DNA from: Escherichia coli | GTDB lineage: Bacteria > Pseudomonadota > Gammaproteobacteria > Enterobacterales > Enterobacteriaceae | Reading direction: 5' to 3' (one strand) | Assembly (NCBI RefSeq): GCF_024502345.1 | Contig: NZ_JALDNN010000001.1 | Length of the DNA: 64,000 nucleotides | Shown here: in pieces, positions 10,829 to 30,517 of the stretch | How the letters are laid out: each line of letters begins with the position of its first letter | Position numbering within the stretch: the first letter of the stretch is position 1 | Position numbers and translations under genes: made by a program | The notes under the pieces: model-generated | The model's database searches: none | What the model saw: the letters and a program-made list of their open reading frames with translations, nothing else | Told to the model about the DNA's origin: nothing

Positions 10829-11941
10829 ATGACGGATAATCCGAATAAAAAAACATTCTGGGATAAAGTCCATCTCGATCCCACAATGCTGCTGATTTTA
10901 CTGGCATTGCTGGTTTACAGCGCCCTGGTTATCTGGAGCGCCAGCGGTCAGGATATTGGCATGATGGAGCGTAAAATCGGCCAAATCGCGATGGGTCTGG
11001 TCATCATGGTGGTGATGGCGCAAATTCCTCCACGCGTTTATGAAGGCTGGGCCCCCTATCTCTATATCATCTGTATTATTTTGCTGGTGGCGGTAGATGC
11101 TTTCGGTGCCATCTCTAAAGGCGCTCAACGCTGGCTGGACCTCGGTATTGTTCGTTTTCAGCCGTCGGAAATTGCCAAAATAGCCGTACCACTGATGGTT
11201 GCGCGCTTTATCAACCGCGACGTTTGCCCGCCATCGTTGAAGAACACTGGCATCGCGCTGGTGCTGATATTTATGCCCACGCTGCTGGTGGCTGCACAGC
11301 CTGACCTGGGAACATCAATCCTCGTTGCGCTTTCCGGTCTGTTTGTACTGTTCCTCTCTGGCCTTAGCTGGCGTCTGATTGGCGTCGCAGTAGTGCTGGT
11401 AGCGGCGTTCATTCCGATTCTGTGGTTCTTCCTGATGCATGATTACCAGCGCCAGCGCGTAATGATGCTCCTGGACCCGGAATCAGACCCACTCGGCGCG
11501 GGCTATCACATTATTCAGTCTAAAATTGCTATTGGCTCCGGCGGATTACGCGGCAAAGGCTGGCTGCACGGCACTCAGTCACAGCTTGAATTTCTCCCCG
11601 AACGCCATACCGACTTTATCTTCGCGGTACTGGCGGAAGAGCTGGGATTAGTGGGCATTTTGATTCTGCTCGCTCTCTACATTCTGCTGATCATGCGCGG
11701 GCTGTGGATAGCCGCCAGAGCGCAAACCACCTTTGGTCGCGTAATGGCTGGCGGCTTAATGCTGATATTATTCGTTTATGTCTTCGTAAATATTGGTATG
11801 GTAAGCGGTATTCTGCCGGTTGTAGGGGTTCCGCTCCCACTGGTCAGTTATGGAGGATCGGCGCTAATTGTGCTGATGGCTGGGTTCGGGATTGTAATGT
11901 CAATCCACACCCACAGGAAAATGTTGTCGAAAAGCGTGTAA
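10829..11941 (+). CDS. mrdB: SEDS peptidoglycan polymerase RodA
   Basis: 370-aa polytopic membrane protein immediately downstream of mrdA. Confidence 0.97.
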
Positions 11942-11951
11942 GAGGTGCGCA

Positions 11952-13040
11952 ATGCGTAAGCAGTGGCTCGGGATCTGCATCGCGGCAGGAATGCTCGCGG
12001 CATGTACAAGCGATGATGGTCAGCAACAGACGGTAAGTGTACCGCAGCCTGCGGTATGTAACGGCCCCATAGTTGAAATTAGCGGGGCGGACCCGCGTTT
12101 CGAACCACTGAACGCGACGGCAAATCAGGATTACCAGCGCGACGGTAAAAGCTACAAAATCGTGCAGGATCCGTCTCGATTTAGCCAGGCGGGACTGGCG
12201 GCAATCTATGATGCCGAACCAGGCAGTAACCTGACGGCCTCTGGCGAAGCTTTCGATCCGACACAGCTGACGGCGGCCCATCCAACGCTTCCGATCCCCA
12301 GCTACGCCAGAATCACTAACCTGGCTAACGGGCGAATGATCGTGGTGCGCATTAATGATCGCGGCCCTTACGGCAACGACCGCGTTATTTCGCTTTCTCG
12401 CGCGGCAGCTGACCGTCTTAACACGTCAAACAACACCAAAGTTCGTATCGATCCGATTATTGTCGCCCAGGATGGTTCGCTTTCTGGTCCTGGTATGGCT
12501 TGTACCACAGTCGCCAAACAGACTTACGCCCTGCCTGCACCTCCCGATTTAAGCGGTGGCGCGGGAACAAGTTCAGTGTCTGGCCCGCAGGGTGACATTC
12601 TTCCGGTCAGTAATTCGACGCTAAAAAGCGAAGATCCGACCGGCGCGCCGGTAACCAGCAGCGGTTTCCTCGGCGCACCAACGACCTTAGCGCCAGGTGT
12701 ACTGGAAGGCAGCGAACCGACGCCTGCGCCACAGCCCGTTGTTACAGCTCCGTCGACAACGCCTGCAACCTCGCCTGCAATGGTGACACCGCAAGCCGCC
12801 TCGCAAAGCGCCAGCGGCAACTTTATGGTGCAGGTCGGGGCCGTTAGCGATCAGGCTCGTGCGCAACAGTACCAACAGCAACTGGGACAGAAGTTCGGCG
12901 TCCCCGGTCGCGTAACTCAAAATGGCGCAGTCTGGCGGATCCAACTTGGCCCATTCGCCAGCAAAGCCGAAGCCAGTACCTTGCAGCAACGTTTGCAAAC
13001 CGAAGCCCAATTACAGTCATTTATTACCACCGCGCAGTAG
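11952..13040 (+). CDS. rlpA: septal ring lytic transglycosylase/lipoprotein RlpA (SPOR domain)
   Basis: 362 aa; lipobox LAAC; Pro/Thr/Ser-rich linker; C-terminal SPOR-like region. Confidence 0.93.
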   Translation: MRKQWLGICIAAGMLAACTSDDGQQQTVSVPQPAVCNGPIVEISGADPRFEPLNATANQDYQRDGKSYKIVQDPSRFSQAGLAAIYDAEPGSNLTASGEAFDPTQLTAAHPTLPIPSYARITNLANGRMIVVRINDRGPYGNDRVISLSRAAADRLNTSNNTKVRIDPIIVAQDGSLSGPGMACTTVAKQTYALPAPPDLSGGAGTSSVSGPQGDILPVSNSTLKSEDPTGAPVTSSGFLGAPTTLAPGVLEGSEPTPAPQPVVTAPSTTPATSPAMVTPQAASQSASGNFMVQVGAVSDQARAQQYQQQLGQKFGVPGRVTQNGAVWRIQLGPFASKAEASTLQQRLQTEAQLQSFITTAQ

Positions 13041-13179
13041 CGTAAAGCAGGCATCTGATGTGTCAATTTCTGTAAATGACGTTAACAAAGTCACGCGGAA
13101 AGTCAGATGCCTGCCGGTAGTGCATTTGCTATAGTAGGGCACTTTTTTTAATTCCATCACGGATGTCGTAGTTCAGACC

Positions 13180-14391
13180 ATGAATACCATTTTTTCCGCT
13201 CGTATCATGAAGCGCCTGGCGCTCACCACGGCTCTTTGCACAGCCTTTATCTCTGCTGCACATGCCGATGACCTGAATATCAAAACTATGATCCCGGGTG
13301 TACCGCAGATCGATGCGGAGTCCTACATCCTGATTGACTATAACTCCGGCAAAGTGCTCGCCGAACAGAACGCAGATGTCCGCCGCGATCCTGCCAGCCT
13401 GACCAAAATGATGACCAGTTACGTTATCGGCCAGGCAATGAAAGCCGGTAAATTTAAAGAAACTGATTTAGTCACTATCGGCAACGACGCATGGGCCACC
13501 GGTAACCCGGTGTTTAAAGGTTCTTCGCTGATGTTCCTCAAACCGGGCATGCAGGTTCCGGTTTCTCAGCTGATCCGCGGTATTAACCTGCAATCGGGTA
13601 ACGATGCTTGTGTCGCCATGGCTGATTTTGCCGCTGGTAGCCAGGACGCTTTTGTTGGCTTGATGAACAGCTACGTTAACGCCCTGGGCCTGAAAAACAC
13701 CCACTTCCAGACGGTACATGGTCTGGATGCTGATGGTCAGTACAGCTCCGCGCGAGATATGGCGCTGATCGGCCAGGCATTGATCCGTGACGTACCGAAT
13801 GAATACTCGATCTATAAAGAAAAAGAATTTACGTTTAACGGTATTCGCCAGCTGAACCGTAACGGCCTGTTATGGGATAACAGCCTGAATGTCGACGGCA
13901 TCAAAACCGGACACACTGACAAAGCGGGTTACAACCTTGTTGCTTCTGCGACTGAAGGCCAGATGCGCTTGATTTCTGCGGTGATGGGCGGACGTACTTT
14001 TAAAGGCCGTGAAGCCGAAAGTAAAAAACTGCTAACCTGGGGCTTCCGTTTCTTCGAAACCGTTAACCCACTGAAAGTAGGTAAAGAGTTCGCCTCTGAA
14101 CCGGTTTGGTTTGGTGATTCTGATCGCGCTTCGTTAGGGGTTGATAAAGACGTGTACCTGACCATTCCGCGTGGTCGCATGAAAGATCTGAAAGCCAGCT
14201 ATGTGCTGAACAGCAGTGAATTGCATGCGCCGCTGCAAAAGAATCAGGTCGTCGGAACTATCAACTTCCAGCTTGATGGCAAAACGATCGAGCAACGCCC
14301 GCTGGTTGTGTTGCAAGAAATCCCGGAAGGTAACTTCTTCGGCAAAATCATTGATTACATTAAATTAATGTTCCATCACTGGTTTGGTTAA
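13180..14391 (+). CDS. dacA: D-alanyl-D-alanine carboxypeptidase PBP5
   Basis: 403 aa; signal peptide; SLTK active-site and KTG motifs. Confidence 0.96.
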
Positions 14392-14448
14392 AAATTGAAC
14401 ACTTGAAAGTGTAATTTCCGTCCCCATATACTAAGCATCAGTAAAAAA

Positions 14449-14478
14449 ACTCCCGCCTTCTGGCGGGAGTTGCTATTT
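14449..14478 (+). terminator. stem-loop terminator downstream of dacA
   Basis: ctcccgcc-ttct-ggcgggag hairpin flanked by A-run upstream and T-rich tail. Confidence 0.5.
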
Positions 14479-14501
14479 AATTACGTTACGCCGGAGCTGA
14501 C

Positions 14502-14765
14502 ATGAAAACCAAACTTAACGAACTGCTTGAATTCCCTACTCCTTTTACTTACAAAGTTATGGGGCAGGCGTTACCTGAGCTGGTTGATCAGGTGGTTGAA
14601 GTAGTACAGCGCCATGCGCCAGGTGACTACACCCCAACGGTAAAACCAAGCAGCAAAGGCAACTACCACTCGGTATCTATCACTATCAACGCCACTCATA
14701 TCGAGCAGGTTGAAACACTATATGAAGAACTGGGCAAAATCGATATTGTCCGCATGGTTCTGTAA
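14502..14765 (+). CDS. ybeD: DUF493 family protein YbeD
   Basis: 87-aa [24 protein letters not shown]..., upstream of lipB. Confidence 0.9.
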
Positions 14766-14865
14766 CTCGCTTCTCCGTTACCCGGCTCCTGGTCGGGTAA
14801 CTCCCCCCTCCTCGCTGTGATATACTTTTCCCCCACTTTTACTCATTCTCCACGGAGATGCCGTT

Positions 14866-15507
14866 TTGTATCAGGATAAAATTCTTGTCCGCCAGCTCGG
14901 TCTTCAGCCTTACGAGCCAATCTCCCAGGCTATGCATGAATTCACCGATACCCGCGATGATAGTACCCTTGATGAAATCTGGCTGGTCGAGCACTATCCG
15001 GTATTCACCCAAGGGCAGGCAGGAAAAGCGGAGCACATTTTAATGCCGGGTGATATTCCGGTGATCCAGAGCGATCGCGGTGGACAGGTGACTTATCACG
15101 GGCCGGGGCAACAGGTGATGTATGTGTTGCTTAACCTGAAACGCCGTAAACTCGGTGTGCGTGAACTGGTGACCTTGCTTGAGCAAACAGTGGTGAATAC
15201 CCTGGCTGAACTGGGTATAGAAGCGCATCCTCGGGCTGACGCGCCAGGTGTCTATGTCGGGGAAAAGAAAATTTGCTCACTGGGTTTACGTATTCGACGC
15301 GGTTGTTCATTCCACGGTCTGGCATTAAACGTCAATATGGATCTTTCACCATTTTTACGTATTAATCCTTGTGGGTATGCCGGAATGGAAATGGCTAAAA
15401 TATCACAATGGAAACCCGAAGCGACGACTAATAATATTGCACCACGTTTACTGGAAAATATTTTAGCGCTACTAAACAATCCTGACTTCGAATATATTAG
15501 CGCTTAA
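14866..15507 (+). CDS. lipB: octanoyltransferase LipB
   Basis: 213 aa; TTG start codon read at 14866. Confidence 0.93.
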
Positions 15508-15766
15508 TTCCATACATCAATGGCCCAATTTACACTGGGTCATTACTCATAATACCTGCTAATGCTTTACATCTCCTTCGCGTTTGTATATTTTCTTTAT
15601 CACTTGCAGAAATGCGATGCTACGCCTTGCTCCGTAACTCACCCCATTGATTAACTTATTGAAATAGTTGATTATGGTGAGCAAAAGCGTTCCGTTCCAA
15701 TTAGACATAAGATTATTGTAATTTTTTTAAATATTATTTTTCCATGAATAAAATTGGAGTAAGTGC

Positions 15767-16720
15767 GTGGATAGTAATAATCAAATCGAACCCTGTTTAA
15801 GCAGAAAGTCGTCAGAAGGTAAACCACAAATATTTACAACCTTACGAAATATTGATCTTAACCTTCTGACTATTTTTGAAGCTGTATATGTACATAAAGG
15901 GATCGTTAATGCAGCGAAAGTGCTTAATCTGACCCCCTCGGCAATCAGTCAGTCTATTCAGAAACTGCGCGTTATATTCCCTGACCCATTGTTTATTCGC
16001 AAAGGCCAGGGTGTCACTCCTACCGCATTTGCGATGCATCTACATGAGTATATCAGTCAGGGCCTTGAGTCCATTCTTGGCGCGCTGGATATCGAAGGAA
16101 GCTATGATAAGCAACGAACGATAACTATTGCGACCACCCCCTCGGTCGGAGCCCTGGTCCTTCCTGTCATTTATCGGGCGATTAAAACTCACTATCCGCA
16201 GCTTTTACTGCGCAACCCGCCCATCAGCGACGCGGAAAACCAACTCAGTCAGTTTCAAACCGATCTCATCATCGATAACATGTTTTGCACCAATCGTACG
16301 GTGCAACATCATGTTCTGTTCACCGACAATATGGTGTTAATTTGCCGCGAGGGAAATCCACTACTCTCTTTAGAAGATGACAGAGAGACTATCGACAACG
16401 CTGCACATGTACTCCTGTTACCGGAAGGACAAAATTTCAGCGGTCTGCGGCAGAGAATTCAAGAGATGTTTCCGGACCGGCAGATCAGCTTCACCAGCTA
16501 CAACATTTTGACAATAGCTGCACTGGTTGCCAACAGTGACATGTTAGCGATTATTCCCAGCCGTTTTTATAACCTGTTTAGCCGTTGCTGGCCGCTGGAA
16601 AAACTGCCTTTTCCGTCCTTAAATGAGGAGCAAATAGATTTCTCTATCCACTACAACAAATTCAGCCTGCGTGATCCCATCCTGCACGGAGTAATAGATG
16701 TTATCCGTAATGCATTTTGA
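15767..16720 (+). CDS. ybeF: LysR-family transcriptional regulator YbeF
   Basis: 317 aa with N-terminal HTH (LTPSAISQSIQKLR); GTG start; between lipB and lipA. Confidence 0.85.
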   Translation: MDSNNQIEPCLSRKSSEGKPQIFTTLRNIDLNLLTIFEAVYVHKGIVNAAKVLNLTPSAISQSIQKLRVIFPDPLFIRKGQGVTPTAFAMHLHEYISQGLESILGALDIEGSYDKQRTITIATTPSVGALVLPVIYRAIKTHYPQLLLRNPPISDAENQLSQFQTDLIIDNMFCTNRTVQHHVLFTDNMVLICREGNPLLSLEDDRETIDNAAHVLLLPEGQNFSGLRQRIQEMFPDRQISFTSYNILTIAALVANSDMLAIIPSRFYNLFSRCWPLEKLPFPSLNEEQIDFSIHYNKFSLRDPILHGVIDVIRNAF

Positions 16721-16928
16721 AAAAGTATTGTTACAGCCAGATCACAGCGCAGAACGATAAAATGGCACAATCCAACAACAATTTTACATTTTCGCGACCG
16801 CTTTGGCTGCTTTCAGGTCCGTTTCAATGATATACTGCCAGTCGTTAATTCAAAAATAGTTGATAATTACAACAATCTATTGAATTGAAACGCTTTCCTT
16901 CGTAATTCGCAACTGGAACACGCACGCT

Positions 16929-17894
16929 ATGAGTAAACCCATTGTGATGGAACGCGGTGTAAAATACCGCGATGCCGATAAGATGGCCCTTATCCCGGTT
17001 AAAAACGTGGCAACAGAGCGCGAAGCCCTGCTGCGCAAGCCGGAATGGATGAAAATCAAGCTTCCAGCGGACTCTACACGTATCCAGGGCATCAAAGCCG
17101 CAATGCGCAAAAATGGCCTGCATTCTGTCTGCGAGGAAGCCTCCTGCCCTAACCTGGCGGAATGCTTCAACCAAGGCACAGCAACGTTTATGATCCTCGG
17201 CGCTATTTGTACCCGCCGTTGTCCGTTCTGTGACGTTGCCCACGGTCGCCCGGTAGCTCCTGATGCCAATGAACCAGTGAAACTGGCGCAGACCATTGCC
17301 GATATGGCGCTGCGTTATGTGGTTATCACCTCCGTTGACCGTGATGACCTGCGCGATGGCGGTGCCCAGCACTTTGCGGATTGCATTACTGCCATTCGGG
17401 AAAAAAGCCCGCAAATCAAAATTGAAACTCTGGTGCCGGATTTCCGCGGTCGTATGGATCGTGCTCTGGATATTCTGACTGCAACGCCACCAGATGTGTT
17501 CAACCATAACCTGGAAAACGTACCGCGTATTTACCGTCAGGTACGGCCTGGTGCAGATTACAACTGGTCGCTGAAGCTGCTGGAACGCTTTAAAGAAGCG
17601 CATCCGGAAATCCCGACCAAGTCTGGTCTGATGGTGGGTCTGGGTGAAACCAATGAAGAAATTATTGAGGTAATGCGCGACCTGCGCCGTCATGGTGTGA
17701 CGATGTTAACGCTGGGGCAATATTTGCAGCCAAGCCGCCATCACCTGCCGGTTCAACGTTACGTTAGCCCGGATGAGTTCGACGAAATGAAAGCCGAAGC
17801 GCTGGCGATGGGCTTTACCCATGCTGCATGCGGTCCGTTTGTCCGCTCTTCTTACCACGCCGATTTGCAGGCGAAAGGGATGGAAGTTAAGTAA
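16929..17894 (+). CDS. lipA: lipoyl synthase (radical SAM)
   Basis: 321 aa; CxxxCxxC radical-SAM motif (CTRRCPFC) plus N-terminal Cys cluster. Confidence 0.97.
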
Positions 17895-17923
17895 ACCTGT
17901 AATAATTACTTACATCTGTCTGA

Positions 17924-17955
17924 TAAAAAACCCGCTTTTTGAAGCGGGTTTTTTG
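17924..17955. terminator. bidirectional intrinsic terminator between lipA and tatE
   Basis: aaaaaacccgctt-tttg-aagcgggtttttt; A-run and T-run on both sides. Confidence 0.7.
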
Positions 17956-17994
17956 TATCGAACAAGATATTGAGGGAGCGTCCTGCTCGCCACG

Positions 17995-18198
17995 TCACTC
18001 TTTATGAGAGAGCTTTTCAGCCTGAAGATCAACGTCTGCGCCTTTTTTCGCCGCAGCATCGTCATCATTCATCGCCTTCTTGAACCCTTTAATGGCCGCT
18101 CCAAGGTCTCCGCCCAGCGTACGTAACTTCTTAGTCCCAAACAGCAGAACGACCAGCGCCGCAACTACCAGCAGTTTGGTAATACTAATCTCACCCAT
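17995..18198 (-). CDS. tatE: twin-arginine translocase subunit TatE
   Basis: 67 aa [33 protein letters not shown]... Confidence 0.93.
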
Positions 18199-18326
18199 AG
18201 ATACCTTCTTGACATATAACCGGCAACAGAACGCGCCTTAAAAACCAGAGAATATTAACGGTCATTCGACGCGCGCACACAATAGCAATCTGTAACAAGG
18301 TGAATCAAGCGCCGAGTAAAAAAACA

Positions 18327-19121
18327 TCATAATAATTGCGGCGACGCAAAGCGACGGTTGTTTAAGACGGGCAGTTGCGCGCGCACCTGACGCACACGTT
18401 CGGGCGTCACTTCCGCCATAATGAGTGCAGGCATTTCTGACGCTGCCGCAATGGTGACGCCAAAGGGATCTATAATCCGGCTTTGCCCGATATTTTTGTT
18501 CCCGCACTCCCCCGCCGCCACCATATAACAGGTGGTATCCAGCGCACGAGCGGCAAGCAACGTTGACCAGTGATGCTCTTTGAGCGGCCCGCGAACCCAG
18601 GCGGCAGGAAGCACCAGGATTTCAGCTCCCTGTAATGCCTGTGCCAGCGCCAGCTCTGGAAAGCGTAAGTCATAACAGGTCATCAGACCGACCTTCATCC
18701 CTTCCACCTCCAGTAACGGAGCTATTTCATTACCAGCATCAACATGGCGTGATTCCTGAATGGCAAATGCATCATAGAGATGCAGTTTGGCATAACGGGC
18801 GACAATGTTTCCTGCCTGTAGCGCCACCAGCATATTCCATGCGCGCCCCGGCGTTGAAGGAACATGAATCGTCAGAATTGTCGTCATCATGTTACGTTTA
18901 CTTTCTCGCCGTAAACGTCCGAGGAATTCGCCTTCCAGCAGCTGTGCTGATTTAACCGATAGATCTGCATCATGATCATCGCGTGCCAGCAATGCTTCCG
19001 GCAGGACAAACAGCGATACGTCGTTTTCCGCCGCCTGCGCCATCAACGAGGCACAAATCTCAGCGTTCTTTTCCCACACAGATGTAACAGCAAACTGTCC
19101 TGCAGCAACCAGCATTGCCAC
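18327..19121 (-). CDS. ybeM: carbon-nitrogen hydrolase (nitrilase superfamily; deaminated glutathione amidase-like), intact
   Basis: Uninterrupted 264-codon ORF upstream of tatE; nitrilase-superfamily fold expected from locus and length. Confidence 0.85.
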
Positions 19122-19207
19122 CTCCTGTCAGAGTCGTAAAATTCGCCAACGACGATTATTCGGCGTTACACTTATCACTCATACAAATCAAATAGCAGGA
19201 TTTTGCA

Positions 19208-19591
19208 GTGTTACAACTTCTTTTAGCAGTTTTTATTGGCGGTGGTACAGGAAGCGTGGCGAGATGGCTGTTAAGTATGCGATTTAACCCGCTGCATCAG
19301 GCGATTCCGTTGGGGACGCTGGCAGCAAACCTGATTGGGGCATTCATCATAGGAATGGGATTCGCCTGGTTCAGCAGGATGACGAACATTGATCCAGTGT
19401 GGAAAGTATTAATCACCACCGGATTTTGTGGCGGTCTAACAACCTTCTCAACATTTTCGGCAGAAGTGGTGTTTTTGTTACAAGAGGGCCGCTTTGGCTG
19501 GGCGTTACTGAACGTTTTCGTCAACCTTCTGGGGTCTTTTGCCATGACAGCACTGGCTTTCTGGCTGTTTTCGGCCTCAACCGCACACTAA
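19208..19591 (+). CDS. crcB: fluoride ion channel CrcB/FluC
   Basis: 127-aa four-TM ORF, GTG start, adjacent to cspE. Confidence 0.9.
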
Positions 19592-19595
19592 AGAC

Positions 19596-19627
19596 CAAAA
19601 AAAAACCCGCTGATTAAGCGGGTTTTG
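19596..19627. terminator. bidirectional intrinsic terminator between crcB and cspE (convergent)
   Basis: aaaaaaaaacccgct-gattaa-gcgggtttt. Confidence 0.7.
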
Positions 19628-19645
19628 AATTCTTGCTGACGTATC

Positions 19646-19855
19646 TTACAGAGCGATTACGTTTGCAGCAGAAGGGCCTTTGGCACCGTTAGTGATTTCG
19701 AACTCTACGCGCTGACCTTCAGCAAGAGTTTTAAAACCATTAGTCTGGATTGCAGAGAAGTGTACGAACACGTCTTTGCTGCCGTCTTCCGGAGTAATGA
19801 AACCGAATCCTTTGGACTCATTAAACCACTTAACGTTACCTTTAATCTTAGACAT
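19646..19855 (-). CDS. cspE: cold-shock-domain protein CspE
   Basis: 69 aa [37 protein letters not shown]...; track ORF is a 5' extension. Confidence 0.95.
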
Positions 19856-20029
19856 CAAAATTACCTTTACATGAAAAATAGACACAAATGCTGTGTCGGT
19901 TACCAGTACACCAATTGTGGTACGCTTTGTCCAGTGCAACTTTACTAAAAAGTGATAAAAGTCGCGTTATTTTTGATGTTACTTATTTTAGCTATTGATT
20001 TTAAAGAAGTTACTAAAACTTCATTTGTC

Positions 20030-20590
20030 TCAAAACTGAAAGCGCATCCAGGCAAAGTACACATTGCCATTGTTGTAGGTACCCGGAATGTAGGTCATCT
20101 GAAAAGTCACTGGGCCATAACCCACGGAGGCCAATGGCAGTAGAACCGGGAGAGGGATGTAATTCCAGTTATCGCGTGCCGTTACGCCAGCGGTGAATCC
20201 CAGACCTAAATGAAAATTTTCATCCGCCAGCGGTCGCCAGGTACTTTCCCATCCGTATCCGGCAATCGGTTCCCATTTGTTCCACGAGTCCTTAAATGCC
20301 ATGGCATACAGGCCATGCCAGTTTCCTTTTTCATCCCAACGCGACAGGCCAAAACCGCCACCCCACGGTCGCTCGTTATAGCGATCGGTTTTTTCTTTGT
20401 CGTAAGCGAAACGTGCATGCCAGGTGATGGCAGGAATATATAAATCATAATGTTCAGGCTGTTGCCAGGTTTGTGCAATATTTTCTCTAAACGTTGTCAT
20501 CCACTCATCTGCGTTAGCAAAAACTTTACCAACGCTGATTAACTGAATAAAAACAAAGGAAAAGATAGCGACATATTTACTCACGTTCAT
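20030..20590 (-). CDS. pagP: lipid A palmitoyltransferase PagP
   Basis: 186 aa starting [16 protein letters not shown]; outer-membrane beta-barrel. Confidence 0.93.
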
Positions 20591-21178
20591 TTGTGACCAT
20601 AAAACATTTATCAAAAATCTACTACTAGCATAGCAAAGCTACAATTAACATAACCTTAATAGACCCAACATAAAGAATAATCTGAATAGCTGCTCTATTT
20701 ATTTCCGCTTGTTCAAGTTAAATATTTCCGCGCATCGATTAAAGATGATGCGTCGTTTTCTGCGATGGGAATAGTCAAAAAAGAAAAACCAAGTCTTTTT
20801 TGATGACAAAATGCAATCAAGGAAAAATTATTTTATTTTTTAACTAGATACAACAATCATCTTAACGAAGTATATAATATAAATCGTCAACCTATGCTCA
20901 TGTTAGATTATTTTTTGAGCGCACAGCCGCAGCTAACACCATTGCAATTAACAAATTTGCATCAATCCACCATCAATTTACACACATTATTATGTGATAA
21001 TTGCCAACCGCTAAATATGCGTTTTGTTATCTATGTATAAAAACAGCAACTTCAATGTCTTAATGGCAGTTTTTCTTGATTTTAATCAGCATTCATCGCC
21101 AATTTATTGGGCATATTTTTTCCTTAAGCTTTAGGAATTTTTTATTATTTACTTTGGGGCCTGGAGACAGGAAAAATT

Positions 21179-22564
21179 ATGCTGACATTCATTGAACTCC
21201 TTATTGGGGTTGTGGTTATTGTGGGTGTAGCTCGCTACATCATTAAAGGGTATTCCGCCACTGGTGTGTTATTTGTCGGTGGCCTGTTATTGCTGATTAT
21301 CAGTGCCATTATGGGGCACAAAGTGTTACCGTCCAGCCAGGCTTCAACAGGCTACAGCGCCACGGATATCGTTGAATACGTTAAAATATTACTAATGAGC
21401 CGCGGCGGCGACCTCGGCATGATGATTATGATGCTGTGTGGATTTGCCGCTTACATGACCCATATCGGCGCGAATGATATGGTGGTCAAGCTGGCGTCAA
21501 AACCATTGCAGTATATTAACTCCCCTTACCTGCTGATGATTGCCGCCTATTTTGTCGCCTGTCTGATGTCTCTGGCCGTCTCTTCCGCAACCGGTCTGGG
21601 TGTTTTGCTGATGGCAACCCTATTTCCGGTGATGGTAAACGTTGGTATCAGTCGTGGCGCAGCTGCTGCCATTTGTGCCTCCCCGGCGGCGATTATTCTC
21701 GCACCGACTTCAGGGGATGTGGTGCTGGCGGCGCAAGCTTCCGAAATGTCGCTGATTGACTTCGCCTTCAAAACGACGCTGCCTATCTCAATTGCTGCAA
21801 TTATCGGCATGGCGATCGCCCACTTCTTCTGGCAACGTTATCTGGATAAAAAAGAGCACATCTCTCATGAAATGTTAGATGTCAGTGAAATCACCACCAC
21901 TGCTCCTGCGTTTTATGCCATTTTGCCGTTCACGCCGATCATCGGTGTACTGATTTTTGACGGTAAATGGGGTCCGCAATTACACATCATCACTATTCTG
22001 GTGATTTGTATGCTGATTGCCTCCATTCTGGAGTTCCTCCGCAGCTTTAATACCCAGAAAGTTTTCTCTGGTCTGGAAGTGGCTTATCGCGGAATGGCAG
22101 ATGCGTTTGCTAACGTGGTGATGCTGCTGGTTGCCGCTGGGGTATTCGCTCAGGGGCTTAGCACCATCGGCTTTATTCAAAGTCTGATTTCTATCGCTAC
22201 CTCGTTTGGTTCGGCGAGTATCATCCTGATGCTGGTATTGGTGATTCTGACCATGCTGGCGGCAGTCACGACCGGTTCAGGCAATGCGCCGTTTTATGCG
22301 TTTGTTGAGATGATCCCGAAACTGGCGCACTCTTCCGGCATTAACCCGGCGTATTTGACTATCCCGATGCTGCAGGCGTCAAACCTGGGCCGTACCCTTT
22401 CGCCCGTTTCTGGCGTAGTCGTTGCGGTTGCCGGGATGGCGAAGATCTCGCCGTTTGAAGTCGTAAAACGCACCTCGGTACCGGTGCTTGTTGGTTTGGT
22501 GATTGTTATCGTTGCTACAGAGCTGATGGTGCCAGGAACGGCAGCAGCGGTCACAGGCAAGTAA
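21179..22564 (+). CDS. dcuC: anaerobic C4-dicarboxylate transporter DcuC
   Basis: 461-aa polytopic membrane protein, uninterrupted; preceded by long AT-rich control region. Confidence 0.95.
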   Translation: MLTFIELLIGVVVIVGVARYIIKGYSATGVLFVGGLLLLIISAIMGHKVLPSSQASTGYSATDIVEYVKILLMSRGGDLGMMIMMLCGFAAYMTHIGANDMVVKLASKPLQYINSPYLLMIAAYFVACLMSLAVSSATGLGVLLMATLFPVMVNVGISRGAAAAICASPAAIILAPTSGDVVLAAQASEMSLIDFAFKTTLPISIAAIIGMAIAHFFWQRYLDKKEHISHEMLDVSEITTTAPAFYAILPFTPIIGVLIFDGKWGPQLHIITILVICMLIASILEFLRSFNTQKVFSGLEVAYRGMADAFANVVMLLVAAGVFAQGLSTIGFIQSLISIATSFGSASIILMLVLVILTMLAAVTTGSGNAPFYAFVEMIPKLAHSSGINPAYLTIPMLQASNLGRTLSPVSGVVVAVAGMAKISPFEVVKRTSVPVLVGLVIVIVATELMVPGTAAAVTGK

Positions 22565-22572
22565 ATAGTAAT

Positions 22573-22600
22573 GCCGGAGGCAAGTTTCCTCCGGCTTTAT
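22573..22600 (+). terminator. intrinsic terminator downstream of dcuC
   Basis: gccggagg-caagttt-cctccggc followed by tttat. Confidence 0.65.
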
Positions 22601-22604
22601 CATG

Positions 22605-23285
22605 TCACCCACTGTGGTATATGCGTTGTGGTCTGCCAACTTTGCCGTGAACAATTTCAGCAATAATCAGATGGCGGCTGGCGCAATATTCAAGATAACG
22701 CCTGGCAGTGGTGCGACTGATGGTCAGTGCCTGCGCCACCGTTTCTGCCGTATGTTGCACACCAGGCTCTTTAAACAGTTTTCGCACCGCGTTTAGCGTC
22801 AAGGGATCAATGCCGGTCGGCAGTTCGTCTTTAGGTTCACCGCGAGCATAGGCATTAAACATCTCATCAATTTGCTTCTGGCTGGCGCTATCAATACTTT
22901 CCAGCATATGTTTACGCTGGCGGAAACGGGTTAGCGTTTGCCCCAGCCGTTCATAGGCAATGGGCTTAATGAGATAATCAAATACACCACAACGTACGGC
23001 TTCAGACACCGTTTCCATATCGCTGGCTGCAGTGGTAAACACCACGTCGCCGGGATAATGCGCCTGCACCAGTTCATGCAATAAATTAATCCCTCTGCCG
23101 TCAGGAAGATAGTTATCGAGCAAGATTAGCCCCGGCTTAAAACGCTCGATCATCATTCGGGCCTGCGCCAGGTTTCCCGCCAGTAATATCTGACTGAATC
23201 CGGGAATGTGACGAATATATTCCGCATGCATCTCTGCCAGCGGCGTTTCGTCCTCAACGATCAATAGGGTTAATGGAGCTGTCAT
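22605..23285 (-). CDS. dpiA: two-component response regulator DpiA (CitB)
   Basis: 226 aa; receiver domain with phospho-acceptor Asp (LILLDNYLPDG) plus C-terminal HTH. Confidence 0.93.
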   Translation of the reverse strand: MTAPLTLLIVEDETPLAEMHAEYIRHIPGFSQILLAGNLAQARMMIERFKPGLILLDNYLPDGRGINLLHELVQAHYPGDVVFTTAASDMETVSEAVRCGVFDYLIKPIAYERLGQTLTRFRQRKHMLESIDSASQKQIDEMFNAYARGEPKDELPTGIDPLTLNAVRKLFKEPGVQHTAETVAQALTISRTTARRYLEYCASRHLIIAEIVHGKVGRPQRIYHSG

Positions 23286-24912
23286 TAGGTTTCACTTTCG
23301 GAATATAGATTGAAAATAAGGTACCGCAGGGATCATTATCTTCGAGAGTGATAACACCACCGCAGCGCGTTACATAGCTGGCAATCAAGTACAACCCAAT
23401 GCCATGTTCACCGGGCTCGTCAGCACGCGTACTGACCCCCTGCTCAAATATTTTGTCTCGTAGAGACTCTGGAACGCCGCAGCCCTGATCGGCGACTTCA
23501 ATCACCACATCATCGCCTTCATCGCTGAGGAATAATTCAACGATCTTGTTTCCTTCATCGCTACGCAGGCTGGCTTCGAAGGCGTTATCAAGTAAATTTC
23601 CCACAATGGCGGCAAACTCGGTGCTATCCAGTCCTGGCGGCAGTTGCGAAAGCTGGCTACCGGGGACGATGATCATTTTTAGCCCCAGTTCGCGGGCGCG
23701 CTGAACTTTACCAAAAAGCAGCCCCGCCACCTGGCGATCGGCAAACGCCTCGCGCAGGCTGTCAATAAGCTGTTGCTGGGCCTGAGACTCCCCCTGCACC
23801 ATCGCCAGCACGCGATCATACTCTTTCATCTGCAACAGACCATTGAGCGTCGACATCCAATTGAGATGCTCGTGTCGCAATGTACGAAGGCTCTCGACGT
23901 ATTGTTTTATTTGCGTCAGTTGCGCATTGAGGGTGGAAATTTCGTCTTTACTACGAAAGCTGATAATGGCCCCCAGCAAATCATCACCTGAACGAATAGC
24001 TTCCCGATTGGCAATAACGCTCAGACCGTTAAAGTTAGCCACCACATCCTGACGTTTTTCATCAATCTGTTCGGTAAAGAAATCGGCGGGCCTGACCACT
24101 TCAGCAATGGGTTTACCCAACCATTGCCGTCCGGGGGAACTCAGCCCCAGCATCTTTCTTGCGTTACGATTGATGGCGGTAATGTAACCGTGCGGATCCA
24201 CCGCAATCAGCCCTTCATAAACCGAACTAAACAGCGCCTCTTGCTGACGGACCACGCGTGCGATTTGCTTTGGCTCCATGCCCATCATCTGCCGACGGAT
24301 ATGCGCGGCCAGGAACCACGACAGCAACATCAGAATCCCTAACAGCACGACAAACACACCTGCCATCGGTAATAAAAACTCAGCCCGCCAGCTATCGATT
24401 TTACTCACCAGGTAGCCAATCGACACCACGCCGATGACTTTTCCATCGTCATCAAAGATTGGCGTTTTGGCGCGCATCGCCATACCCATTGACCCTTTCC
24501 CGGTAATGAAGTAGCTCTCCCCTTTCTCCAGCGCGCCCTGTTTGGTGAACTGCATAGGATAACCAATTTTCTCCGGATTAGGATGGTAAAGGCGGATCGA
24601 GTGCCGGTCGCCAATCACCACATAATCAAAATCGGTATCTCTTTGTAATTTGTTAGCGATGGTCGCCAGCCGTTTGTAGTCACGCGTTTTTACTGCGCTG
24701 ATGATACTGTCATTGGAGGCAATAATTTTCGCCTGATTCATTGCCATGTCGCGTACATGAAGCGTTAAATAGTCCTCAAAACTGGCCGTAAAATATTGCG
24801 CCAGGGCTGCAATGACAAATATTGAGAACACCAGAATCAGCAAAAAGATACGCAGCGGAAATGCCAGTCTTTGGAAAAATGCAAACTGTTTATTCTCGTT
24901 AAGCTGCAACAT
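23254..24912 (-). CDS. dpiB: sensor histidine kinase DpiB (CitA)
   Basis: 552 aa from MLQLNENKQ; two TM segments, periplasmic domain, HATPase; overlaps dpiA start by 32 bp. Confidence 0.93.
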   Translation of the reverse strand: MLQLNENKQFAFFQRLAFPLRIFLLILVFSIFVIAALAQYFTASFEDYLTLHVRDMAMNQAKIIASNDSIISAVKTRDYKRLATIANKLQRDTDFDYVVIGDRHSIRLYHPNPEKIGYPMQFTKQGALEKGESYFITGKGSMGMAMRAKTPIFDDDGKVIGVVSIGYLVSKIDSWRAEFLLPMAGVFVVLLGILMLLSWFLAAHIRRQMMGMEPKQIARVVRQQEALFSSVYEGLIAVDPHGYITAINRNARKMLGLSSPGRQWLGKPIAEVVRPADFFTEQIDEKRQDVVANFNGLSVIANREAIRSGDDLLGAIISFRSKDEISTLNAQLTQIKQYVESLRTLRHEHLNWMSTLNGLLQMKEYDRVLAMVQGESQAQQQLIDSLREAFADRQVAGLLFGKVQRARELGLKMIIVPGSQLSQLPPGLDSTEFAAIVGNLLDNAFEASLRSDEGNKIVELFLSDEGDDVVIEVADQGCGVPESLRDKIFEQGVSTRADEPGEHGIGLYLIASYVTRCGGVITLEDNDPCGTLFSIYIPKVKPNDSSINPIDR

Positions 24913-25291
24913 TGTTTTCCTTGCGGGTTGTCCCGAGCCTCTTTGACGGATGTAATTAAAATGTTGAATCAAAATACATAGATATTAATTATAATCGTGG
25001 CAAATTTTATTCATTAAATCAATTAAATCACTTAAACCTGCGGGTCATTTCGTAATTACATTAATTAAAAAACTTAAAACCATTAAATAAATAAAAAACC
25101 ACTAACTCTATGTGAAATAAATCAAAATTTCACGCCGAAATACTCCTTAGGATGTATAGCGAAAGGAGAAAAAGATATACCTCAATCACCCCCCTTTCTC
25201 CCAAGTGAAAATAAAAGGTTATCAGTTTGCAACATTGAACAACATTCGTTGCAAATCGATAACAACATGCACCTTCAGGATACTATTTATT

Positions 25292-26350
25292 ATGTTCGGC
25301 AATGATATTTTCACCCGCGTAAAACGTTCAGAAAATAAAAAAATGGCGGAAATCGCCCAATTCCTGCATGAAAATGATTTGAGCGTTGACACCACAGTCG
25401 AAGTATTTATTACCGTAACCCGCGATGAAAAGCTTATCGCGTGCGGTGGAATTGCCGGAAATATTATTAAATGCGTTGCTATCAGTGAATCCGTTCGCGG
25501 TGAAGGACTGGCGCTGACATTAGCCACTGAACTGATAAACCTCGCCTATGAGCGGCACAGCACGCATCTGTTTATTTATACCAAAACCGAATACGAGGCG
25601 CTGTTCCGCCAGTGCGGTTTTTCCACGTTGACCAGCGTACCAGGCGTGATGGTGCTGATGGAAAACAGCGCCACGCGATTGAAACGCTATGCCGAATCGC
25701 TGAAAAAATTTCGTCATCCCGGGAACAAGATTGGCTGCATTGTGATGAACGCCAATCCCTTTACGAAGGGTCACCGTTATCTGATTCAACAAGCTGCGGC
25801 ACAGTGCGACTGGTTGCATCTGTTTTTAGTCAAAGAAGATTCTTCACGCTTCCCCTATGAAGACCGGCTGGATCTGGTGTTAAAAGGCACCGCCGATATT
25901 CCACGCCTGACTGTGCATCGCGGCTCCGAATACATCATCTCCCGCGCTACGTTCCCTTGCTACTTCATTAAAGAACAGAGCGTCATTAACCATTGTTACA
26001 CCGAAATTGATCTGAAGATTTTCCGTCAGTACCTCGCTCCCGCACTGGGTGTAACTCACCGCTTTGTCGGTACTGAACCCTTTTGTCGCGTTACCGCCCA
26101 GTACAACCAGGATATGCGCTACTGGCTGGAAACGCCGACTATCTCCGCACCGCCCATCGAACTGGTTGAAATTGAGCGGCTGCGTTACCAGGAGATGCCG
26201 ATATCCGCTTCCCGGGTACGTCAACTGCTGGCGAAAAACGATCTCACGGCTATCGCGCCGCTGGTCCCTGCAGTCACGCTGCATTATTTGCAGAACCTGC
26301 TTGAGCACTCCCGCCAGGACGCGGCAGCTCGTCAAAAGACCCCCGCATGA
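25292..26350 (+). CDS. citC: [citrate (pro-3S)-lyase] ligase
   Basis: 352 aa from MFGNDIFTRV; first gene of cit operon divergent from dpiB. Confidence 0.93.
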   Translation: MFGNDIFTRVKRSENKKMAEIAQFLHENDLSVDTTVEVFITVTRDEKLIACGGIAGNIIKCVAISESVRGEGLALTLATELINLAYERHSTHLFIYTKTEYEALFRQCGFSTLTSVPGVMVLMENSATRLKRYAESLKKFRHPGNKIGCIVMNANPFTKGHRYLIQQAAAQCDWLHLFLVKEDSSRFPYEDRLDLVLKGTADIPRLTVHRGSEYIISRATFPCYFIKEQSVINHCYTEIDLKIFRQYLAPALGVTHRFVGTEPFCRVTAQYNQDMRYWLETPTISAPPIELVEIERLRYQEMPISASRVRQLLAKNDLTAIAPLVPAVTLHYLQNLLEHSRQDAAARQKTPA

Positions 26351-26364
26351 GAAACAGGTGAAAA

Positions 26365-26661
26365 ATGAAAATAAACCAGCCCGCCGTTGCAGGCACCCTT
26401 GAGTCTGGGGATGTGATGATACGCATCGCCCCACTCGATACGCAGGATATCGACCTGCAAATCAACAGCAGCGTTGAGAAACAGTTTGGCGATGCAATTC
26501 GCACCACCATTCTGGACGTTCTCGCCCGCTACAACGTGCGCGGCGTACAGCTGAATGTCGATGACAAAGGCGCACTGGACTGCATTTTACGTGCACGACT
26601 GGAAGCCCTGCTGGCACGCGCCAGCGGTATCCCGGCTCTGCCATGGGAGGATTGCCAATGA
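26365..26661 (+). CDS. citD: citrate lyase acyl carrier protein (gamma subunit)
   Basis: 98 aa [23 protein letters not shown]... Confidence 0.95.
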
Positions 26662-27566
26662 TTTCCGCTTCGCTGCAACAACGTAAAACTCGCACCCGCC
26701 GCAGCATGTTGTTTGTGCCTGGTGCCAATGCCGCGATGGTCAGCAACTCCTTCATCTACCCGGCTGATGCCCTGATGTTTGACCTCGAAGACTCCGTAGC
26801 ATTGCGTGAAAAAGACACCGCCCGCCGCATGGTTTACCACGCGCTGCAACATCCGCTGTATCGCGATATTGAAACCATTGTGCGTGTCAACGCGCTGGAT
26901 TCCGAATGGGGTGTCAACGACCTGGAAGCCGTCGTTCGCGGTGGTGCGGACGTTGTGCGTCTGCCGAAAACCGATACCGCTCAGGATGTTCTGGATATCG
27001 AAAAAGAGATCCTGCGTATCGAAAAAGCCTGTGGTCGTGAACCCGGCAGCACCGGCCTGCTGGCGGCGATTGAATCTCCGCTGGGCATTACCCGCGCAGT
27101 GGAAATCGCTCACGCTTCCGAGCGTTTGATCGGTATCGCCCTCGGTGCAGAAGACTATGTGCGCAACCTGCGTACAGAACGCTCCCCGGAAGGAACTGAA
27201 CTGCTGTTCGCTCGCTGCTCCATTTTGCAGGCCGCGCGCTCTGCGGGTATTCAGGCGTTCGATACCGTCTATTCCGACGCTAACAACGAAGCTGGATTCC
27301 TGCAAGAAGCCGCCCACATCAAACAGCTGGGCTTTGACGGCAAATCGCTGATCAACCCGCGTCAGATTGATCTGCTGCACAACCTCTACGCACCGACCCA
27401 GAAAGAAGTGGATCACGCCCGCCGCGTCGTAGAAGCCGCTGAAGCCGCCGCTCGCGAAGGCCTCGGCGTGGTTTCCCTGAACGGCAAGATGGTGGACGGT
27501 CCGGTTATCGATCGCGCCCGTCTGGTGCTCTCCCGTGCAGAACTTTCCGGCATCCGCGAAGAATAA
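26658..27566 (+). CDS. citE: citrate lyase beta subunit (citryl-ACP lyase)
   Basis: 302 aa from [10 protein letters not shown]; overlaps citD stop. Confidence 0.95.
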
Positions 27567-27576
27567 GGCAATCAAA

Positions 27577-29109
27577 ATGACGCAGAAAATTGAACAATCT
27601 CAACGACAAGAACGGGTAGCGGCCTGGAATCGTCGCGCTGAATGCGATCTTGCCGCTTTCCAGAACTCGCCAAAGCAAACCTACCAGGCTGAAAAAGCGC
27701 GCGATCGCAAACTGTGCGCCAACCTGGAAGAGGCGATTCGTCGCTCTGGTTTACAGGACGGCATGACGGTTTCCTTCCATCACGCTTTCCGTGGCGGTGA
27801 CCTGACCGTCAATATGGTGATGGACGTCATCGCGAAGATGGGCTTTAAAAACCTGACCCTGGCGTCCAGCTCCCTGAGTGATTGCCATGCGCCGCTGGTA
27901 GAACACATTCGCCAGGGCGTGGTTACCCGCATTTATACCTCCGGCCTGCGCGGTCCACTGGCGGAAGAGATCTCCCGTGGTCTGCTGGCGGAACCGGTGC
28001 AGATCCACTCTCACGGCGGACGTGTGCATCTGGTACAGAGCGGCGAACTGAATATTGATGTGGCTTTCCTCGGCGTCCCGTCATGTGATGAATTCGGTAA
28101 TGCCAACGGCTACACCGGTAAAGCCTGCTGCGGCTCCCTCGGTTATGCAATGGTTGATGCCGACAACGCAAAACAGGTCGTGATGCTTACCGAAGAACTG
28201 CTGCCTTATCCGCATAATCCGGCAAGCATTGAGCAAGATCAGGTTGATCTGATCGTCAAAGTTGATCGCGTTGGCGATGCTGCAAAAATCGGCGCTGGTG
28301 CTACCCGTATGACCACTAACCCGCGCGAACTGCTTATTGCCCGTAGCGCTGCGGATGTGATTGTCAACTCTGGCTACTTCAAAGAAGGTTTCTCCATGCA
28401 AACCGGCACCGGCGGCGCATCGCTGGCGGTAACCCGTTTCCTGGAAGACAAAATGCGTAGCCGCGATATTCGCGCCGACTTCGCCCTTGGCGGTATTACC
28501 GCGACGATGGTTGACCTGCACGAAAAAGGTCTGATCCGCAAACTGCTGGATGTGCAGAGCTTTGACAGCCATGCTGCGCAATCGCTGGCCCGTAACCCCA
28601 ATCACATCGAAATCAGCGCCAACCAGTACGCTAACTGGGGTTCGAAAGGCGCATCGGTTGATCGTCTCGACGTGGTGGTACTGAGCGCGCTGGAAATTGA
28701 CACGCAGTTCAACGTTAACGTGCTGACCGGTTCTGACGGCGTACTGCGTGGCGCTTCCGGTGGTCACTGCGATACCGCGATTGCCTCTGCGCTTTCCATC
28801 ATCGTCGCGCCGCTGGTACGCGGTCGTATTCCGACTCTGGTGGATAACGTGCTGACCTGCATCACCCCGGGCTCCAGTGTCGATATTCTGGTCACAGACC
28901 ACGGTATCGCAGTTAACCCGGCACGTCCGGAACTGGCAGAACGTCTGCAGGAAGCGGGCATTAAAGTGGTTTCCATTGAGTGGCTGCGCGAACGCGCGCG
29001 TCTGCTGACCGGTGAACCACAGCCGATTGAATTCACCGACCGCGTCGTTGCCGTTGTGCGTTACCGCGATGGCTCGGTGATCGATGTTGTGCATCAGGTG
29101 AAGGAATAA
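27577..29109 (+). CDS. citF: citrate lyase alpha subunit (citrate CoA-transferase)
   Basis: 510 aa from MTQKIEQSQRQ. Confidence 0.95.
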   Translation: MTQKIEQSQRQERVAAWNRRAECDLAAFQNSPKQTYQAEKARDRKLCANLEEAIRRSGLQDGMTVSFHHAFRGGDLTVNMVMDVIAKMGFKNLTLASSSLSDCHAPLVEHIRQGVVTRIYTSGLRGPLAEEISRGLLAEPVQIHSHGGRVHLVQSGELNIDVAFLGVPSCDEFGNANGYTGKACCGSLGYAMVDADNAKQVVMLTEELLPYPHNPASIEQDQVDLIVKVDRVGDAAKIGAGATRMTTNPRELLIARSAADVIVNSGYFKEGFSMQTGTGGASLAVTRFLEDKMRSRDIRADFALGGITATMVDLHEKGLIRKLLDVQSFDSHAAQSLARNPNHIEISANQYANWGSKGASVDRLDVVVLSALEIDTQFNVNVLTGSDGVLRGASGGHCDTAIASALSIIVAPLVRGRIPTLVDNVLTCITPGSSVDILVTDHGIAVNPARPELAERLQEAGIKVVSIEWLRERARLLTGEPQPIEFTDRVVAVVRYRDGSVIDVVHQVKE

Positions 29110-29112
29110 GCC

Positions 29113-30517
<1,405 letters not shown>

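Follow-up and report, generated by a model that had tools for sequence, protein, structure and literature searches.

An intact ybeM gene in Escherichia coli, predicted to encode a deaminated glutathione amidase and frameshifted in K-12

Introduction

Enzymes of the nitrilase superfamily work through a Cys thiolate that forms a thioester acyl-enzyme, with a Glu as general base and with a Lys and a second Glu that stabilise the intermediate. Glutathione is synthesised by E. coli (gshA, gshB), and the YbeM homologue of E. coli itself is said to have been assayed by Peracchi et al. in their PNAS article of 2017. Deaminated glutathione (dGSH) is described in PMC10452834 and PMC7041631 as the 2-oxo analogue of glutathione that arises from side reactions of transaminases. 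The same papers, citing Peracchi et al. 2017, state that Nit1 hydrolyses dGSH to 2-oxoglutarate and cysteinylglycine and has a repair role, and that it is found in many bacteria. Loss of Nit1 gives mild phenotypes in mice, yeast and Arabidopsis, according to PMC7041631.

Among proteins of solved structure, the closest to YbeM are NitFhit of C. elegans (1EMS) and Nit2 of S. cerevisiae (4H5U, 4HG3, 4HG5, 4HGD), which have the fold predicted for YbeM and Glu, Lys, Glu and Cys at the corresponding positions. The identity to them is however only about 28-30%, and YbeM is shorter than the eukaryotic Nit1 branch (262 against about 300 ordered residues), having neither the Fhit fusion of NitFhit nor the insertions of yeast Nit2. 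The Nit2 or omega-amidase group, with mouse 2W1V, yeast Nit3 (1F89) and E. coli YafV, shares superfamily, fold and triad with YbeM, but the mouse and yeast proteins are weaker matches (E 4e-22 and 6e-20), and YafV, the separate Nit2-type paralogue that E. coli has (PMC8788347), is a different protein with a different substrate, alpha-ketoglutaramate.

In K-12, ybeM is treated as a pseudogene and has served as a site for neutral integration (PMC7242477). Inside the ybeM of CFT073 there is an NsrR ChIP-seq peak at +345 nt, with a ybeM expression of 0.30-fold, and the gene is also a ChIP-chip target of NsrR in K-12 (PMC5320621). Here we describe ybeM in a stretch of E. coli DNA of 64,000 nucleotides, below called the window. 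We put the probability at roughly 0.9 that 18327..19115 on its minus strand is an intact, ancestral E. coli ybeM that would encode a 262-residue dGSH amidase (EC 3.5.1.128) of the Nit1 type in the nitrilase superfamily. The expression of the gene, the activity of the protein and the dGSH substrate are what we infer from the sequence.

The ybeM locus and its neighbours

The list of open reading frames of the window has an uninterrupted frame at 18327..19121 on the minus strand, with 264 codons from a GTG and a stop. In random sequence the probability of 264 stop-free codons is about 3e-6, and a chance origin of the frame is decisively ruled out by its matches to Pfam and NCBIfam families, which are given below. 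The features of the locus are the following.

17995..18198, minus strand: tatE, the downstream neighbour of ybeM on the same strand (ORF translation and annotation of syntenic loci)
18327..19115, minus strand: ybeM coding sequence, 262 codons and TGA (ORF, PF00795, NF033621, and a CDS that RefSeq annotates on the identical sequence of strain 88-3493)
19119..19121, minus strand: GTG that opens the mechanical ORF of 264 codons; it overlaps the last base of GGAGG, and orthologues start two codons downstream
19121..19125, minus strand: Shine-Dalgarno-like GGAGG, read from the sequence, at a spacing of 5 nt before the ATG at 19115
19208..19591, plus strand: crcB, fluoride exporter gene, divergent from ybeM (ORF and annotation of syntenic loci)

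The ATG at 19115, which gives 262 aa, is almost certainly where ybeM starts, and the GTG at 19119..19121 is likely not a start, since GGAGG lies at a proper place in front of the ATG and the orthologues are all 262 aa long. The aligned orthologues begin at the Met of this ATG, and RefSeq annotates the identical sequence in strain 88-3493 as a gene of 789 nt (262 aa). The first-pass annotation had described an intact C-N hydrolase ORF of 264 codons upstream of tatE. The uninterrupted frame and the family matches bear out that it is intact, but the figure of 264 codons holds for the open frame from the GTG and not for the coding sequence.

The gene order crcB, ybeM, tatE, lipA is the same as in NC_000913.3 and in other RefSeq genomes, and the gene is thus a positional orthologue of ybeM. 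Strain 88-3493 (WP_001401281.1), which has the same synteny from crcB to lipA, is 100% identical at the DNA level over a query of 1,011 nt that covers ybeM and its flanks. Over a longer stretch of 22 kb (8000..30000) the highest identity reached in the 5,426 complete genomes of E. coli is 99.3%, compared to the 100% of the ybeM segment in 88-3493, which would mean either that the strain from which the window comes lies outside the collection of complete genomes or that the region is a mosaic.

Because a fluoride riboswitch could constrain the ybeM promoter, we looked for one in the 92-nt spacer between crcB and ybeM, and found no Rfam match to it there at the gathering threshold. The sole Rfam match was a cspA thermoregulator (RF01766, 124.5 bits) at 19598..20040 on the minus strand, covering the 5' leader and the coding region of cspE. 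A scan for promoters and terminators gave numbers that were not above the shuffled expectation, and we therefore draw no conclusion on the operon structure with tatE. One antisense ORF of 106 aa and two same-strand ORFs of 81 and 67 aa that overlap ybeM lack a Pfam match even at E 1, and were rejected as spurious. There is also an out-of-frame ORF of 47 aa inside ybeM (18722..18865, minus strand) that begins with MFLQRRGAH; the same peptide has been described from a 29-bp ybeM fragment, the over-expression of which, from UTI89 DNA, led to filamentation, and the authors consider this effect an artefact of fragment expression (PMC6206680).

Family, predicted fold and catalytic residues

YbeM is assigned to the nitrilase or C-N hydrolase superfamily. 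Residues 5-247 match the Pfam family CN_hydrolase (PF00795) over profile positions 2-255 of 256, with an E of 4.3e-41 and 141.4 bits, where the gathering score of the family is 23.2. The NCBIfam model NF033621 (de_GSH_amidase) is matched over positions 2-260 of 260, and its curated whole-protein cut-off of 355 bits is passed with 450.8. Models for other members of the superfamily are not reached, i.e. those for the YafV-type or Nit2 amidohydrolase (NF007757, 61.5 bits against 249), N-carbamoylputrescine amidase (TIGR03381, 63.4 against 410) and true nitrilase (NF040852, 61.5 against 500), and the scores of YbeM likewise stay well short of the formamidase and aliphatic amidase cut-offs. The closest solved sequences belong to the Nit1 branch, NitFhit (1EMS, 1.6e-29) and yeast Nit2 (4H5U, 1.1e-26), and mouse Nit2 and yeast Nit3 rank behind them.

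The AlphaFold model, for which 24 orthologues were used, has a mean pLDDT of 79 and a pTM of 0.83, with strands and helices alternating as expected, and would adopt the alpha-beta-beta-alpha sandwich fold. The confidence is low at residues 113-124, which include Glu121, and at 174-178 and 251-262. When this predicted structure was compared with the PDB by Foldseek, the best 50 matches listed were all from the nitrilase superfamily, with TM up to 0.83. Chains of yeast Nit2 came first (TM 0.82-0.83, E about 2e-20), and among the best fold matches is yeast Nit2 C169S with an endogenous peptide-like ligand (4HGD).

The catalytic residues were placed by a HMMER alignment to 1EMS, for which the triad Glu54/Lys127/Cys169 has been published, and their conservation was followed in 24 full-length YbeM orthologues of 71-84% identity.

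18996..18998, minus strand: GAA codon of the catalytic Glu40, motif LPE, aligned to NitFhit Glu54; invariant in the 24 orthologues
18786..18788, minus strand: AAA codon of the catalytic Lys110, motif YAKLHLYD, aligned to NitFhit Lys127; invariant in the 24 orthologues
18753..18755, minus strand: GAA codon of the second active-site Glu121, motif QES, aligned to NitFhit Glu143; invariant in the 24 orthologues
18675..18677, minus strand: TGT codon of the nucleophile Cys147, motif TCYDLRFPE, aligned to Cys169 of NitFhit and of yeast Nit2; invariant

The Glu-Lys-Cys triad is thus present in the frame (E40/K110/C147, which in the numbering of 264 codons are E42, K112 and C149), together with a second Glu (E121), and the position in yeast Nit2 to which Cys147 aligns is the one that is mutated in 4HGD. 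Since the catalytic residues of the superfamily are conserved, we propose that Cys147 would attack the amide carbonyl of dGSH with Glu40 acting as general base, and that Lys110 and Glu121 would stabilise the tetrahedral intermediate. Cysteinylglycine would then leave, and hydrolysis of the YbeM thioester would release 2-oxoglutarate. In the cell this reaction could serve as a step of metabolite repair or salvage.

The specificity for a substrate can however not be read from a catalytic triad, and in the Foldseek comparison the omega-amidase Nit2 (2W1V) and an N-carbamoylputrescine amidohydrolase have TM scores similar to those of the best matches to YbeM. It could then be argued that this intact member of the Nit branch has some other 2-oxo-acid amide or small amide as its physiological substrate, and that the name of the amidase has been transferred too far. 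We find this improbable. The dGSH amidase model is exceeded by a wide margin (450.8 against 355) and the YafV-type, N-carbamoylputrescine amidase and nitrilase cut-offs are far from reached, proteins of the Nit1 branch are the best matches in sequence as well as in fold, and for a Nit2-type role E. coli has the separate paralogue YafV (PMC8788347). A dGSH amidase is the reading that we keep.

The Ser258 variant

The allele of the window differs from the others at one position close to the end of the protein.

18342..18344, minus strand: codon 258, Ser instead of Pro (RRFAPPQLL), from alignments; the surrounding 71-mer is found in 43 of 5,426 genomes

Every other E. coli allele that we compared has Pro258, as have nearly all orthologues, and the 43 genomes with the exact Ser258 71-mer are mainly of O145:H28 and O169:H41, with strain 88-3493 as a further carrier. 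The replacement of a conserved C-terminal Pro, the rarity of the variant and the dispensability of the gene, to which we return below, would all agree with an open frame that gives an impaired product, through Pro258Ser or through lack of expression, and thus with a cryptic loss-of-function allele. The invariant core, catalytic residues included, is nevertheless intact throughout, and residue 258 belongs to a tail that the model does not place with confidence, five positions short of the C-terminus. The allele has moreover persisted in several serotype lineages (O145:H28, O169:H41) without secondary lesions, and a good Shine-Dalgarno sequence is present. Loss of function through Ser258 is on these grounds unlikely, and the idea of a cryptic null allele as a whole seems to us very improbable compared to an intact gene.

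The K-12 deletion and the ancestral state

The ybeM of K-12 MG1655 (NC_000913.3), at the same locus and in the same orientation, is annotated as a pseudogene (b4581, 658031..658818, 788 nt), and in another MG1655 assembly it is flagged as 'frameshifted' by PGAP. A global alignment with NC_000913.3 gave 12 substitutions over 789 nt and a deletion of one nucleotide, which sits between 658229 and 658230 of the K-12 sequence.

18916, minus strand: G of the Arg67 codon (CGT), CDS nt 200, present here and absent in K-12 (pairwise alignments to NC_000913.3 and other genomes)

After the deletion K-12 reads GGA CTT TAC ... TGA TGA, which gives 66 native and 9 aberrant residues, and this stub of 75 aa keeps Glu40 but is without Lys110, Glu121 and Cys147. 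The predicted dGSH amidase is absent from K-12 because of one G deleted in codon 67. The first-pass annotation had taken the gene of K-12 to be a frameshifted pseudogene, and it was right in this; K-12 does not have the same intact frame, and the alignment locates the lesion.

To see how the deletion is distributed we searched 5,426 complete E. coli genomes, 5,424 of which have the ybeM locus, with allele probes of 70-71 nt, for which any mismatch or gap brings the identity below 99%. An exact copy of the 70-mer with the K-12 deletion is present in 860 of the 5,424 genomes with the locus (~16%, about one in six) and the intact 71-mer of the window in 3,552, and the remainder differ by SNPs. 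Two of the carriers are wild strains, 300709 from human stool in Mozambique (4.88 Mb) and FORC 064 from cucumber in Korea (4.87 Mb), and in both of them the gene is annotated as 'frameshifted'. Apart from V33A and V37A, they agree with the K-12 haplotype at all other variable sites. Because wild carriers are on the same haplotype as K-12, the data suggest that the codon-67 deletion arose once, in a natural lineage. The frameshift is, as judged by these genomes, a natural polymorphism of a lineage, and neither specific to K-12 nor a laboratory artefact.

The two exceptions, V33A and V37A, are nonsynonymous changes (CDS nt 98 and 110) that are found in K-12 and are absent from 300709 and FORC 064. 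They are located beside the catalytic Glu, and would fit with drift after the inactivation of the gene. The combination is found exactly in 365 genomes, and among the matches listed five out of five are laboratory derivatives of K-12. By subtraction, and assuming that all 365 carry the deletion, we estimate that roughly 500 of the complete genomes (about 10%) have it without being K-12.

Intact orthologues of 262 aa are found in E. fergusonii, several Citrobacter, Salmonella enterica, Leclercia, Kosakonia, Enterobacter and Cronobacter, and the gene is also intact in the divergent E. coli BL21, ATCC 25922 and O157:H7. The intact alleles differ mostly by synonymous substitutions. Compared with BL21 there are 8 synonymous and 2 nonsynonymous ones, and compared with ATCC 25922 there are 14 and 3; two residues thus differ from the BL21 protein (WP_000959109.1) and three from that of ATCC 25922. 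As judged by the outgroup orthologues, which are intact at 262 aa, intact ybeM is shown to be the ancestral state. The opposite order, in which the K-12 frameshift is the original form and the reading frame was secondarily restored here, has a negligible probability, being a logical possibility alone that is refuted by the intact orthologues of 262 aa in E. fergusonii, Citrobacter, Salmonella and other Enterobacteriaceae, and opposed by BL21, ATCC 25922 and O157:H7 being intact despite their divergence and by the confinement of the deletion to a single haplotype. That this strain retains the ancestral functional allele, as had been suggested from the first reading, stands with regard to the ancestral, intact form, while 'functional' is a prediction made from sequence.

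Other lesions in ybeM

There are further genomes in which ybeM has been broken. In O166:H15 JNE21-003 (NZ_AP041809.1; locus L016, 3099..6016) the IS21-like element ISEc62 (istA/istB) is inserted after about nt 698, near the 3' end of the gene, and in O103 WL1467 (locus L014, 1037..1826) there is a +1 insertion of an A at CDS nt 174. Both lesions are independent of the codon-67 deletion. Since the gene has been lost in about 16% of the genomes, and through further independent lesions, ybeM is clearly dispensable under many conditions, which agrees with the mild phenotypes upon loss of Nit1 that are reported in PMC7041631.

In some public assemblies all the genes nearby (pagP, lipA, tatE and others) are frameshifted, and such error-ridden assemblies inflate the apparent number of ybeM pseudogene alleles in protein-cluster databases. 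The clusters P0044 (215 aa), P0041 (214 aa) and P0058 (205 aa), the sizes of which pool sequences at 90% identity, were rejected as natural frameshift alleles, the first two because pagP and lipA are also broken on the contigs examined, so that these assemblies are error-ridden. A ybeM frameshift in UTME-9 was likewise rejected, as the neighbouring genes are broken too and the assembly is error-prone.

Discussion

RefSeq already annotates the gene where it is intact and the pseudogene of K-12, and the finding is as such an ordinary one that was already known.

A possible connection to nitrosative stress may be noted as well. The sequence ATGATGCATTT at 18765..18775 on the minus strand (CDS nt 341-351) agrees with the NsrR half-site consensus AAGATGCATTT in 10 of 11 positions, and it overlies the codons of the motif KLHLYDAF around the catalytic Lys. 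The window has no other match of this kind, while chance alone would give 1.96, and by itself the match is not significant, but we mention it since the published ChIP peak falls at the same place. One could speculate that ybeM is a conditionally dispensable repair gene that has repeatedly been lost in a lineage-specific way, through the old deletion in the clade that includes K-12 and through sporadic hits by IS elements and frameshifts, and that where it is intact it is tied to nitrosative stress by an intragenic NsrR operator. We hold this combined picture to be doubtful.

For the species as a whole the distribution means that K-12 is an unfaithful reference at the ybeM locus. An apparently functional dGSH amidase, as predicted here, is encoded by about five out of every six complete genomes of E. 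coli, but not by K-12 and its natural sister clade. As K-12 is without this enzyme, metabolic models and knockout collections that are based on K-12 would omit the glutathione-repair step. The neutrality of the K-12 ybeM integration site would for its part not be transferable to strains in which ybeM is intact.
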